The notes beneath the pieces are model-generated. The model did no database searches, was not told the DNA's origin, and worked only from the letters and a program-made list of their open reading frames with translations. A stretch of DNA of 64,000 nucleotides from a bacterium (GTDB lineage Bacteria; Bacteroidota; Ignavibacteria; UBA10030). Numbering within the stretch: position 1 is the stretch's first letter; the number at the start of each line of letters is the position of its first letter. Both the position numbers and the translations under genes were made by a program. This document shows positions 48,268 through 61,306 of this stretch, in pieces. The DNA is taken from NCBI GenBank assembly GCA_043803945.1, contig JAZDJN010000048.1:24124-88123 (forward strand), read 5' to 3'.

Positions 48268-51063
48268 CTAAAATGGATTAAAGGTAATTTCTATTTCATC
48301 CTTTAATCCAATATCAGCCAGTGATTGGCGAAGCTCATTTGTCAGGGCGCTTAACTTATCCGTTTGTCCATCCATCGTGATGGAAATATGTATACTCAAA
48401 TTTTCTGCATCTCTCACCTTAGGGAGAATTTTACTTCCAAATCGATTCCATAACTCAGGCGGAATGGAGCCACTCACCTGTAGTTGTACAATTGCTGCCG
48501 GCGTTATGATAGTTGAGATGGAAGTTGGCTCAAGACTCTCCTGTTCACCTCCAATGGGCGTTATCGGAGTTTCTACGATTGAAGATGAAGGAGGTACATT
48601 GCCGCTTTTGAGTTTTTCAGCCTTTTCCTTTTTTAGAAGAAACACATCCTTATCAAAAGCTACTTCTTCATGCGAGAGTGGTTCTTTGTACCATACATTT
48701 TGATATGTGCCATCCGGATTGCTCCCGGAAGCCAAACCAAAATCTCCCTTCTCAACGAATTCCGGAATTCTTATTGTCAGCATTTTATCGGGATCAATGA
48801 GCCGGGTGAGTGAGCCGTTGAGAAAGCTTTGACGCAATCCAAGCAGCGGCCATATTCCACTTTCCTTCAAGGCTGTAGGCCAATTACGTTCGAGGTACCC
48901 AACACCGACAGATTCATTGAGCAAACCCTCAGATCTAAGAGCTGTAATAATTCTTCCGGTGAGAGTTTCCAACCGGCTTCCATGACCGGCACTCAGGTCT
49001 ATTGCTTTCATTCCATCGCGGCTTTGAGGATCGAGAAGGTATGCAAAGCGATAGCTTGCCCAGACTTCATCACGTGCCTGTTCTTCAGCATCCTTCGAGT
49101 TGATTATGACCTTCTTCTTTTCATCCGGATCGAATTCTCCGCCCAATGTGCCTGTTGCGATTTCTTCCTGGACCCGATTCCAGGCAAGCCACATTTCGAC
49201 CTTTTCGCACAGTGCTCTTCCTGGCTTCCTTAGACACCACACAATCGAACCCGGATATATTCTCGGTGAGTTCCCTTTATTTCTGCACCAATCCTGAAGT
49301 TGTTTTCGTATGCCACTCTCTCCTTGTACGGAGCTGACCGAAGCATCGTTCCATTCAATATCTGGATCCATTACGGCAAGTGTAAGGCGTGGAGAATCGG
49401 GAACTGCAGAGCTCTCTTCCGGAAAGAGCTGCAGCGGAACAAGCGCCCCTTTTTCAAATTCCTTTTTGATGAGAGAACGAAGAACTTTCTTGACTTCATC
49501 ATCGCCGAGAGAAGCCTTTCTATCGTTCACAACCTTTTTCAGTGTCGGTTTGAAACCAAATTGGTAACCGTCGGTTCCAAATTTTCTCAGGAAGAACGAT
49601 CTCGATTCGAGTGTTGAGGCTCCTGTATCAATAGATGTCGTATCGATATTTGGTTCACCAAGAGCAAAGCGAAGCTCCGGAAGATGGGCAACTTTCTCAC
49701 GCATTCCTCCGGAAGATTCAAAGAATATTGCCGTTGCTAATCGCTGATGAATATCCTTCAACGGTCCCTTCGTATCGGCATCCAATGCTTTTGCATGAGA
49801 GAACTGACCTACAATATCAGAGTCTATTGCTGGAACAAGCCGTCCTTCACCGAGCTGGCCGATAACGGTCGCTTGAAAATCGGGTACGTGTAACGGGGCA
49901 GAACCGATGGTGATAAGAGCTTCTTTACGTGCTTTCGTAAAATTGTCTTTGTAGACCCACGATATCCATTGAGCAAGCATGGCAAGCGTACCGCGTGTTT
50001 GTTGATATTGTGGTAAAGTTTGCCATTTCCGCTGAAAGACAGAGAGTGTCGATGGATGGAAAGGATAGCACGACTCGAATCGATTTCTCAGGAACTCTTT
50101 TGCTTTCGTTTCTGTGTTTGCCGTATCAACCGTTGTCCATTCGAACGGTAATTCAGCACGACGTTCAAAACACCAATCGGAATATTCCTTCGCAACAGCT
50201 TTACGGATTGACTCCTTACCAATATCCTCGAATAGACGTCTCCGGACAACTTCACTGATTTCGGATTCATCATTTGCGATAAGGTCTTTGGCGACACGCC
50301 TGACCACTTTTGTGATCTTCTCCTGCCACTCCAAATCCTTCGACGTCATTTCGACCTGGCTTCGAGGAAGGCTTATAACTGTAGCACAATTCGTCACACC
50401 GGTCATGGCGACTGTGAGATTTTGGATGAAGGAGTGGAATGATTCTGCCATATCACGATGGCGGTTCATGAAGTTCAATACTTCATCAAAGAGGATAAGA
50501 ACGTTACCTCCGCCAATCTTGAAGAGCTGGGTAAGTGTATCAGTACCCGGGGGTGATGTCAGAGCTTTTAAACCAAGAGCTTCGACACCTTCCTTGCCTG
50601 CGATTTGAAAAGCGATATCTGTCCAAGGGGTTTCTCGTCCTGGTTTAGGATCCCACGCGTTTCCAACAAAGACTGCTACTTTTGCTTTGGGCGGTTCTGT
50701 AACACCAGCATCGGAAAGCAAAGCTTTGACATCTGTATTGCGAAAAGCAATCTCACCGTTTTTTGCTATGTGATAGAGCGCTGTAAGAGTGTGTGTTTTA
50801 CCGCCGCCAAATTGAGTGACGAGAGTGAGCACCGGTGAGGTGTTCTCAGTTTTGCCAGACAACCGACGCTCAACCATTCCGGCGTGTTCACGAAGTGCAC
50901 GTGTGAAGTATGTGCGCGAGAAGAATTTCTCTGCATCCCGATAATCGAGCGGTGCAGTGCCTGCCACTACCTGCTCGAGCGCGATTGCAAATTCATCGGG
51001 ATTGAATGAGCGTCCTTCGCGGACCTCTGCTCGTGGTGTTGCTACTTTATACCAGGGTTCCAT
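48268..51063 (-). CDS. DUF499-family AAA+ ATPase
   Basis: PW..VATPR.EV..G, T.FGGGKTH Walker A, ILFDE Walker B, YPFHP, QQTRGTL. Confidence 0.9.
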   Translation of the reverse strand: MEPWYKVATPRAEVREGRSFNPDEFAIALEQVVAGTAPLDYRDAEKFFSRTYFTRALREHAGMVERRLSGKTENTSPVLTLVTQFGGGKTHTLTALYHIAKNGEIAFRNTDVKALLSDAGVTEPPKAKVAVFVGNAWDPKPGRETPWTDIAFQIAGKEGVEALGLKALTSPPGTDTLTQLFKIGGGNVLILFDEVLNFMNRHRDMAESFHSFIQNLTVAMTGVTNCATVISLPRSQVEMTSKDLEWQEKITKVVRRVAKDLIANDESEISEVVRRRLFEDIGKESIRKAVAKEYSDWCFERRAELPFEWTTVDTANTETKAKEFLRNRFESCYPFHPSTLSVFQRKWQTLPQYQQTRGTLAMLAQWISWVYKDNFTKARKEALITIGSAPLHVPDFQATVIGQLGEGRLVPAIDSDIVGQFSHAKALDADTKGPLKDIHQRLATAIFFESSGGMREKVAHLPELRFALGEPNIDTTSIDTGASTLESRSFFLRKFGTDGYQFGFKPTLKKVVNDRKASLGDDEVKKVLRSLIKKEFEKGALVPLQLFPEESSAVPDSPRLTLAVMDPDIEWNDASVSSVQGESGIRKQLQDWCRNKGNSPRIYPGSIVWCLRKPGRALCEKVEMWLAWNRVQEEIATGTLGGEFDPDEKKKVIINSKDAEEQARDEVWASYRFAYLLDPQSRDGMKAIDLSAGHGSRLETLTGRIITALRSEGLLNESVGVGYLERNWPTALKESGIWPLLGLRQSFLNGSLTRLIDPDKMLTIRIPEFVEKGDFGLASGSNPDGTYQNVWYKEPLSHEEVAFDKDVFLLKKEKAEKLKSGNVPPSSSIVETPITPIGGEQESLEPTSISTIITPAAIVQLQVSGSIPPELWNRFGSKILPKVRDAENLSIHISITMDGQTDKLSALTNELRQSLADIGLKDEIEITFNPF

Positions 51064-51099
51064 TAGTTTTTGCTTTCTTTCTCTTTCGACAGGAAAACA

Positions 51100-60800: not shown

Positions 60801-61306
60801 AACTTTTCCTTAAGCTCACGCTGCCATTGGAACGCGAGATTTGCGGGGCATACTATGAGGATACGCTCGGCTAAACTACGTAACTTAAGTTCTCGTAACA
60901 GCAAACCGGCCATAATTGTTTTTCCCGCCCCTGCATCATCAGCGAGAAGAAAACGAACGCGGGCAAGCTTTAATAAATAATCATATACCGCTTCAAGCTG
61001 GTGTGGTAAGGGATCGACACGAGAAATAGACAATCCAAAATAGGGATCGAATTCATACGCGATGCCAAGTGAAAGAGCCTGTATGCCTAAGCGTAGTAAT
61101 CCACCATCTCCGGTGTATTCAAAAGTAGAATTTAGAATGGTGAGTTTTGAAATGTCATCAGAGGAAAGAGTGATTGTACGAAATCTTTCGCTCTTCGTTC
61201 CGACTACTCCAACGACCCAAATATTTATACCATTCGGTTGTACTGTAACAACACGAACGGGTTCGTTGAAAAGATTTCCTGTGAGTATTTGGCCAGGTTC
61301 AAGCAT
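57878..61306 (-). CDS. SNF2-family helicase with C-terminal DUF3883 (PD-(D/E)xK-like) nuclease domain
   Basis: LPHQ, LADDAGAGKT, DEAH, LTATPH, EAAGEGINLQ, EQRMGRIHRYGQ; GYDI.S..LIEVKG. Confidence 0.93.
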   Translation of the reverse strand: MLEPGQILTGNLFNEPVRVVTVQPNGINIWVVGVVGTKSERFRTITLSSDDISKLTILNSTFEYTGDGGLLRLGIQALSLGIAYEFDPYFGLSISRVDPLPHQLEAVYDYLLKLARVRFLLADDAGAGKTIMAGLLLRELKLRSLAERILIVCPANLAFQWQRELKEKFDETFHVRSGRELREQYGVNLWMEEKQVITSLDLAKREDILPGLRQCQWNLVIIDEAHRMSAYAEDKKSQRYRLGELLRDSTEHLLLLTATPHRGDPANFSLFLQLLDQDAFADIRSIRQAMEQQKAPFYLRRIKEAMVHFPTRQDDGSYEAKKIFTKRIPATASFSIDDEEFELYQEVTRFVKRQSAKAAVKEADPRARAIGFLMSLYQRRLASSTRSLLRSLENRARRLEENLRNAQELTRLAPLEIPDPEEWEELEDSERERLERLTEAISLTNNEKDIREEIDELKVLAVKAEAVEKSGKEEKLSKLNSVLKEQGFFENNDERLLIFTEYRDTLDYLVGKLRDWGFNVRFIHGQMKPGSREEPGTRLYAEQEFKEGNIQILVATEAAGEGINLQACHIMFNYDIPWNPNRLEQRMGRIHRYGQMKDCLIFNFVTINTIEGRILQRLLEKLQEIRNALDDDAVFNVVGEILPATHIERVLREYYAGKFGDVDLENRVLENVNEEKFRSICKNALEGLATKSLNLEMLVERRARAKERRVVPETIARFMREAASRVPYTLQPMATFPHTFNPGPTPNEIKRYQDEPDWKLGKIVHRYTRISTDRKIAEENNLEWVTPGHPLFEALRRFTLDHSRKTFADGACFYSLKHTSPVRLDFYEARVVDGLGHTIHQTLFAIELHDDGIPMSFDPNVLNDFQPAPLFNPLPEVAELPEATEWIHSHKLQPFIAEVRKERLEEIDRIERHVEISLTELLLREDQKIGKFTDEKEKGDALAPANLAKAEERHADLMKRRQKRRDELARQRSLTLQNVRRITSVLVLPHPEAAKPEITNLRQNKETEDIAMKVAMEYEHKQGRVVIDVHEQNLGYDITSLDTKSGDLRLIEVKGLGAAEGTILLTPNEHRVAEDRRDCFWLYVVVDCSSPNPRLITEQDPASKEWHEVKKVAHYTLDVKSIGGKYQIHEPLKEFKPRTGKE

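Follow-up and report, generated by a model that had tools for sequence, protein, structure and literature searches.

The question raised by the locus described here is whether six co-oriented genes, spread over 13 kb, form one layered anti-phage system or a known defense core in which separate cassettes have settled. The genes lie in a stretch of 64,000 nucleotides (the window, whose positions are used below) of contig JAZDJN010000048.1 in GenBank assembly GCA_043803945.1, from a bacterium of the Ignavibacteria (UBA10030). They are six minus-strand open reading frames (ORFs) for an SNF2 helicase, a deaminase fusion, a DUF1156 methyltransferase, an IrrE-like protein, a DUF4411 protein and a DUF499 ATPase. 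This order was given in an earlier note on the same DNA and is borne out by the ORF calls and by the Pfam scan, which backs every domain named for the six ORFs (DUF3883 being PF13020, NOV_C). The reading favored here, at a probability of roughly 0.55, is that of an Hma system with two independently mobile cassettes, in one of which the deaminase would be a stand-alone back-up defense protein that docks on its own box array. The array lies in the 494-bp gap after the deaminase gene and did not figure in the earlier note.

The core is almost certainly an Hma system, that is, a Type-1 system among those related to bacteriophage exclusion (BREX-related, BR), and not the DUF3780 restriction-like system. 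The PADLOC models for HmaA, HmaB and HmaC match with E values of 2e-174, 1.7e-107 and 1.3e-94, whereas the DUF3780-system models are far weaker on the same three proteins (6e-30, 3.1e-46 and 4.7e-21). The NCBIfam models of the DUF3780 system all score far under their cut-offs; NF042964 reaches 163 bits against 1,100, on helicase parts only. The features expected of Hma, or Type-1 BR, are present in one co-oriented locus: a NOV_C helicase, a DUF1156 N6-type methyltransferase and a DUF499 ATPase. The HmaA protein matches SNF2, Helicase_C and NOV_C in Pfam, with Walker A, DEAH, motif VI and D..ExK strings intact, HmaB matches PF06634, with FxGxG at residue 153 and DPPY at residue 534, and in HmaC the Walker A and Walker B strings are intact. 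The DUF3780-DUF1156-PLD helicase-DUF499 (Type-2 BR) system has a homologous ATPase, methyltransferase and helicase, but its DUF3780 gene is not in this locus, where all six ORFs belong to other families, and its N-terminal HKD/PLD nuclease is not on this helicase (no PLD family match in Pfam). The earlier note was right in calling the core BREX-related and in seeing no DUF3780 gene; its assignment to the DUF3780 type did not hold, as the profile scans confirmed the core but placed it in Hma, a system that does without DUF3780.

The Hma system was named in PMC8565338 (Payne 2021), and PMC12839542 (Rakesh and Krishnan 2026) equates the so-called Hma with its DUF499-centered BREX-related systems. 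There, Type-1 BR consists of three genes with a helicase-restriction endonuclease fusion, and a methylation-based self/non-self logic is predicted for such systems. HmaA alone was reported to block T4 via its NOV_C nickase domain, and modification of T4 by HmaB had no effect on T4 escape (Liu 2024, PMC11232893). The core described here likely acts as published, with HmaA as the effector. It resembles the systems of PMC8565338 and PMC11232893 in its helicase-nuclease, DUF1156 methyltransferase and DUF499 ATPase in A-B-C order with genes inserted between them. It differs in that its HmaC has no Pfam HEPN match and in that both inserts fall outside HEC-01 to HEC-09 and the inserts described in the available parts of those papers.

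Embedded genes are a published hallmark of Hma, reported in 931 of 1,485 systems (62.7%; 10.1101/2024.01.29.577857) and in about 66.5% of systems (PMC11232893). The earlier note had thus seen the embedded accessory genes correctly, but the novelty it gave to the architecture is not upheld. Among 400 genomes of the phylum a DUF499 match was found in 20 genomes, at 21 places; three loci were set aside (two ended by a contig edge, one with a broken DUF499 frame), leaving 18. Inserts of at least 100 residues are present in 15 of these 18 and include YhcG, ABC ATPase pairs, GmrSD and AbiE; in one locus a Schlafen-PF13749-winged-helix gene occupies the A-B slot. Neither the deaminase fusion nor the IrrE-DUF4411 pair lies inside any of the 18, and in the two closest loci (57-63% identity) YhcG and ATPase-PIN genes occupy both slots instead. 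The neighborhoods of the deaminase comprised 83 distinct loci, of which 31 with a flank shorter than 2.5 kb were dropped. No hmaB or hmaC homolog was found at the remaining 52. A restriction-modification (RM) gene stands within three co-oriented genes at 22 of them, compared with 34 of the 2,525 genes of this genome (1.3%), and in 9 of these 22 loci the deaminase gene sits between RM genes. The cassette was also met in conjugative-element and housekeeping contexts.

That the six genes form one integrated system, with the inserts wired to the Hma core as the earlier note had proposed, is most improbable in view of these counts. Co-orientation and the 4-nt overlap that couples the deaminase gene to hmaA are in its favor, and table S7 of PMC11232893, in its available part, has one deaminase fusion (PF00383 with PF13749) and two DUF4411 genes among the neighbors of 1,079 hmaA genes, which also speaks against a strict absence of such inserts from Hma. 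Against it, neither insert recurred with the core in the neighborhoods read, and DUF4411, present in 67 of the 400 other genomes, is found roughly 12 kb or less from a DUF499 gene only once, outside that operon. Because the inserts are mostly found without the core, and because the closest Hma loci fill the slots otherwise, both are very probably mobile cassettes independent of Hma. The architecture is ordinary for Hma, and each of the inserts is likely a back-up module in its own right. The PADLOC HEC models gave no match to the inserts; the peptidase domain has a weak match to PDC-M69B, and DUF4411 has none. In a rearranged Hma-like locus (L149:6816-11165), a 1,450-residue Sacsin-like and NOV_C protein was observed between the methyltransferase and DUF499 genes.

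The deaminase fusion was modeled with a pLDDT of 88; the model combines a deaminase similar to RibD with a GHKL part similar to DIP2311 and with a winged helix, so that the winged helix-turn-helix named in the earlier note has a structural counterpart. A structure search gave Z scores of 21.2 to RibD/RibG (PDB 2b3z; root-mean-square deviation 1.9 Å over 144 residues) and 21.8 to DIP2311 (3lmm). The HAE and PCx(n)C motifs, with the insert histidine, are shared with RibD, whereas the reductase domain is missing and the score on the RibD model is 68.7 bits against a cut-off of 156; the host genome holds a separate full-length ribD. All of 57 relatives share the zinc ligands and the catalytic glutamate (H68, E70, C95 and C107) as well as the E/N pair of the GHKL domain (E321 and N325), and HxE and PCxxC are retained in all of the best 120 homologs, which are 47-62% identical to the fusion, self aside. 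In 21 of these 120 (P0003, P0004, P0009 and 18 others) a beta-rich insert of 120-129 residues follows residue 237; it had no usable atlas match and is possibly an added sensor domain.

The fusion shares with Schlatpase, or Schlafen-HisKinase-HTH, proteins a PF13749 GHKL domain that scores above the cut-off and carries the catalytic E...N pair (E321 and N325; E314 and N318 in RzAgo), a C-terminal winged helix and a position inside RM and BREX-related operons. It carries the RibD-like deaminase (residues 19-169) in place of the Schlafen/AlbA_2 RNase, and it has a cognate downstream box array, which 29 of 30 other PF13749 genes checked lack. The PF13749 domain was reported to bind and hydrolyze ATP and to drive tetramers of Schlafen-Argonaute, and about 60,000 Schlafen-bearing proteins were counted on the GHKL-winged-helix scaffold (10.64898/2026.05.29.728809). 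HisKinase and HisKinase-HTH are the commonest Schlafen fusions (10.1101/2025.07.24.666596), and the Schlafen-bearing PF13749-winged-helix chassis stands close to BREX/BR loci in no fewer than 1,017 taxa (PMC12839542). The RibD clade was defined in PMC3239186, whose available part does not mention a deaminase-GHKL fusion. Literature searches for the deaminase fusion or its array, and for the IrrE-DUF4411 insert, returned no description, although such cassettes may be listed in the supplementary material of PMC12839542 or the bioRxiv preprints; with that proviso, the deaminase cassette is an uncharacterized and previously undescribed extension of the scaffold. Elsewhere in this genome (C33:57360-58970), a 537-residue PF13749-winged-helix protein with a Schlafen-like N-terminus by eye is encoded between hsdS-like and hsdR-like genes, with no array.

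The family loci were gathered by a single-protein scan of genome contigs, which gave 2, and by an alignment scan of metagenomes, from which the best 80 of 566 were taken. The family forms atlas clusters of 53-457 members, the named close homologs are mostly from Bacteroidota, and its distribution is patchy (9 of 401 genomes). No member was found in 72,556 plasmid records at an E value of 1e-30 or in GenBank phage records, and none in IMG/VR, where the sole match is an unrelated deaminase fusion. To judge by the company that the gene keeps, the cassette probably has a role in defense. It would, improbably, be a selfish addiction module that travels in RM operons and mobile elements without protecting against phages, and whose array times killing after loss of the locus; the patchiness and the conjugative and housekeeping contexts agree with this, and tethering to its own DNA would suit post-segregational killing, but the strong enrichment inside RM operons, in the slot of known back-up effectors, and the lack of plasmid matches do not.

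The array consists of units of three 9-bp boxes (forward, forward, reverse) in the spacing 9-3-9-3-9, of which the first unit behind the deaminase gene is the best-scoring one in the 5.5-Mb genome, by a matrix made from the family with this unit included. The same geometry was searched for regardless of sequence from -60 to +400 bp of the stop codon of 65 family genes and was found behind 57, whereas upstream regions gave it in 3 of 65 cases and shuffles in 22 of 1,300; most of the eight genes missed show outer inverted pairs or boxes on inspection. Consecutive units are 61-63 bp apart in 41 of 50 intervals, and the outer box pair matches better than the inner pair in 47 units, the inner better in 15, and both equally in 45. 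A strict pattern of the unit occurs at 12 places in 8 of 401 genomes; seven (in 4 genomes) are directly behind a family gene, two follow a broken hsdM, one follows a wing remnant and two are unexplained, and the reversed control gave 5 places. The possibility that the gap is protein-coding was rejected, since the coding strand holds only short stop-to-stop frames and a winged-helix remnant lies downstream in 1 of 65 loci. Arrays as a general trait of PF13749 genes were likewise rejected.

Some further units were noted apart from the cognate arrays. Weak boxes of another class (ACTGAGCCA) lie deeper in the gap of this window (56047-56072), and extra units of another class stand behind the cognate ones at L030, L036, L068, L072, L076 and L368, as if left over from earlier domain swaps; one of these downstream regions holds a winged-helix wing remnant between the unit classes. 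An orphan two-unit array of the GCCA class, with a 61-bp period and no family gene adjoining, lies near a small defense-like region of this genome (C40:39636-39729).

Docking of the protein on its own array through the winged helix is most likely, because the box halves covary with the wing (residues 487-502) and the recognition helix (residues 472-482). When 492 alignment columns were ranked for box position 7, the recognition-helix residue R478 came first by a narrow margin (0.63 against 0.62 for the next); A stands at this box position with R478 in 44 of 45 cases and with another residue in 1 of 12. The helix-plus-box types are scattered on a tree built without the winged helix, which suggests that domain and array were swapped together between cassettes. 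Linkage alone could explain such joint swapping, and the box was therefore split into halves for the test. With overall protein similarity removed, positions 1-4 correlate with the wing window (partial r 0.54) and not with the helix window (0.01), and positions 5-8 with the helix window (0.54) more than with the wing window (0.15). Windows elsewhere in the protein have a mean of 0.00, a standard deviation of 0.11 and maxima of 0.40 and 0.27, and the correlations were unchanged after pruning to 46 rows. Separate reading of the two box halves by wing and recognition helix matches the way in which a winged helix is expected to lie on DNA. NCNT boxes accompany 14 of 14 long-wing proteins and 0 of 43 short-wing proteins (for example ACTTGGACA with a long wing and ATCGCGACA with a short one). 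Wing length and NCNT boxes each change five times on the tree, with 5 of 5 independent pairs in the same direction; crossed controls of the tree-based tests show no trend, and three loci fetched later agree with the rules. A candidate rule linking Y478 to GCAA was not clean and was dropped.

The recognition code would fit equally well a transcription regulator that binds the array and controls the genes that follow it (from hmaB on in this locus, hsdR in type I RM operons), somewhat in the manner of an RM controller protein, with the deaminase or the ATPase merely tuning it. In 34 of 41 loci whose next gene is co-oriented, the array precedes that gene; it often stands upstream of hsdR, and one sigma-70-like match (56320-56291) overlaps the first boxes. 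The array is equally kept, however, before a convergent next gene (14 of 15 loci), promoter-like matches in the gap region occur at chance (21 against 20.3), as do terminator-scan matches, and the invariant deaminase active site would be superfluous for a plain repressor; a regulator of this kind is accordingly an unlikely explanation.

Under the favored reading, of a back-up protein docked on its array, ATP-bound oligomers of the deaminase protein would bind, through the winged helix, the outer inverted boxes of each unit behind their own gene, and two units six helical turns apart would anchor a larger complex to a single face of the DNA. Docking may park the deaminase in an off state. It would be lost upon infection, when host DNA is destroyed, when a DNA-mimic anti-restriction protein is made or when competing sites appear, and the freed RibD-like deaminase would then damage a nucleotide or cofactor pool, so that the infected cell stalls. 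Such a parked-and-released switch is drawn by analogy and is offered tentatively, as a doubtful part of the scheme.

Several points weigh against the favored reading. Of the mechanism steps, docking has direct comparative support, while the off state and the trigger are suggested by analogy alone, and the closest structure, a cofactor-biosynthesis enzyme, does not point to the substrate of the modeled deaminase domain. No RM gene stands within three genes at 30 of the 52 deaminase loci, the array of this window is partly decayed, and a unit is found behind 1 of the 30 other PF13749 genes. The partial correlations are pairwise and treat kin as independent. The tree-based tests fall short of significance (wing, p 0.0625 with 5 pairs; R478, p 0.25-0.5 with 3 pairs; K474, p 0.125-0.625), the wing trait was set after the table had been inspected and the other traits were partly chosen in the same way, so that the evidence for the code is suggestive. 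Exceptions also exist: the K474 rule holds for K with G in 20 of 25 cases and for R with C in 23 of 32, and N478 goes with GCAA in two loci.

Units in phage genomes belong to the same side of the balance. IMG/VR was scanned with two strict patterns, a GCCA/GCAA pattern and a back-to-front control, which matched 65, 77, 16 and 0 stretches, respectively. The two strict patterns correspond to 142 loci and 94 distinct phage places; a second unit 60-64 bp away was found at none of the 94. No family winged helix was found at the 142 loci or in 5 whole phage records, by searches run without a positive control. The forward-forward-reverse unit therefore exists without the deaminase protein. Exactly one match was present in 8 of 10 phage records searched, and the units often stand directly after a stop codon, many of them after a gene that, to judge by C-terminal motifs, would be ribonucleotide-reductase-like or single-strand-binding-protein-like. 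Among related large phages, single units at conserved intergenic positions were seen in one group of 17 and another of 19 (within L152-L293 and L352-L367), and one 8.7-kb contig holds two units of different classes (L178 and L248). The phage unit may be a co-opted terminator, the site of another protein, a decoy or a trigger. That the deaminase is a sequence-programmed DNA guard, with the exchangeable winged helix and the phased array as lock and key and the phage GACA, GCCA or GCAA units either as the trigger that would draw the enzyme away from its array and activate it or as decoys by which phages would counter it, is speculative and quite unlikely.

The T run that follows 37 of the 94 phage units, as at terminators, raises the question of whether the array is an RNA element, either a terminator or an RNA antitoxin. 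In AvcID, an RNA antitoxin restrains a deaminase. A 247-nt stretch of the array folds better than its shuffles (z -2.58), and the frequent position of phage copies just after stop codons fits such an element. Only 7 of the 107 units behind deaminase genes, however, have a T run, and box mismatches show no wobble bias to either strand (23 against 27 and 37 against 35). Spacers and linkers (28-30 bp between units) are fixed in length and free in sequence, with a mean identity of 0.30 between linkers, no Rfam family matched the arrays of 8 loci, and the box halves follow the two DNA-reading parts of the winged helix. An RNA element is thus very improbable, and the docked back-up protein is retained as the better account.

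The second cassette, in the hmaB-hmaC slot, is likely a separate module of a protease regulator and a PIN toxin, to judge by analogy with the HTH-DUF955 and DUF4411.1 pairs predicted as toxin-antitoxin modules in PMC5499597. It has the same gene order, the HExxH protease motif and the PIN-like partner, and nothing was found, relative to the available part of that paper, that sets this copy apart. The IrrE-type protein matches Pfam with an E value of 1.3e-17 and has HEIAH at residues 220-224. No Pfam HTH match was found in it at E 0.01, and weak RmrA profile matches reach residue 25-34. The DUF4411 gene is translationally coupled to the IrrE-type gene. Of 29 other DUF4411 loci read, 28 have an IrrE-type gene upstream, and the remaining one is at a contig end. 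A broken second copy of the IrrE-type gene stands at a contig start of this genome (C114:142-589).

The features of the locus and its flanks are listed in the table. The hmaA frame stays open to a GTG at 61345; two close homologs align from residues 15 and 18, consistent with the ATG start adopted. Both start/stop overlaps seen in the earlier note are present, of 4 nt (ATGA) between the SNF2 and deaminase genes and of 1 nt (TAATG) between the IrrE-like and DUF4411 genes, and the remaining gaps are 494, 82 and 36 bp. The GC content of the genes is 0.42-0.48, with the minimum in the deaminase gene (genome, 0.465). The flanking oxidoreductase gene was kept in 15 of 15 family relatives searched. 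It adjoins thx in 2 of 14 and dinB in 1 of 14, the locus being missing at the site in these 3, and no hmaA was found in its 1.5-kb flanks in the 14 relatives read; the 13 kb is therefore most likely an insertion between thx and the oxidoreductase gene. A direct repeat of at least 10 bp was not found at the ends of the island. Farther off in the window (40464-44513) lies a host gene for a 1,349-residue secreted repeat protein with, by eye, a C-terminal sorting-like domain.

Table. Features of the Hma locus, the box array and the host flanks (window positions).
Feature	Position	Strand	Basis
FAD-dependent oxidoreductase, host flank, divergent from hmaA	61526..62638	+	Pfam DAO
hmaA: SNF2 helicase with C-terminal NOV_C (DUF3883) PD-(D/E)XK nuclease	57878..61306	-	PADLOC, Pfam
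Deaminase fusion: RibD-like zinc deaminase, PF13749 GHKL ATPase and winged helix, 504 aa	56367..57881	-	
Two single forward boxes, probably remains of further units	56350-56358, 56301-56309	-	matrix scan
Box unit 1: AGATGGACA-cat-TGCCGGACA-tga-TGTCCATCT (forward, forward, reverse)	56218..56250	-	
Box unit 2, 63 bp after unit 1, reverse box decayed	56155..56187	-	
hmaB: DUF1156 amino-methyltransferase	52837..55872	-	PADLOC, FxGxG and DPPY motifs
IrrE/ImmA-type protein (Peptidase_M78, DUF955), HExxH; first gene of hmaB-hmaC insert	51600..52754	-	
DUF4411 PIN-like protein	51100..51600	-	Pfam E 9.6e-49
hmaC: DUF499 AAA+ ATPase	48268..51063	-	PADLOC, Walker A and B strings
30S ribosomal protein Thx, 41 aa, host flank	48009..48134	-	Pfam PF17070

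With the deaminase cassette, the effectors borne by the very common GHKL-winged-helix scaffold come to include a deaminase. The cassette also offers a testable answer to the role of the winged helix, namely the apparent reading of a cognate array by a two-part code. If docking controls the enzyme, the cassette would be a defense switch responsive to the state of its own DNA, and the natural wing and helix variants would then amount to a small set of programmable DNA readers.

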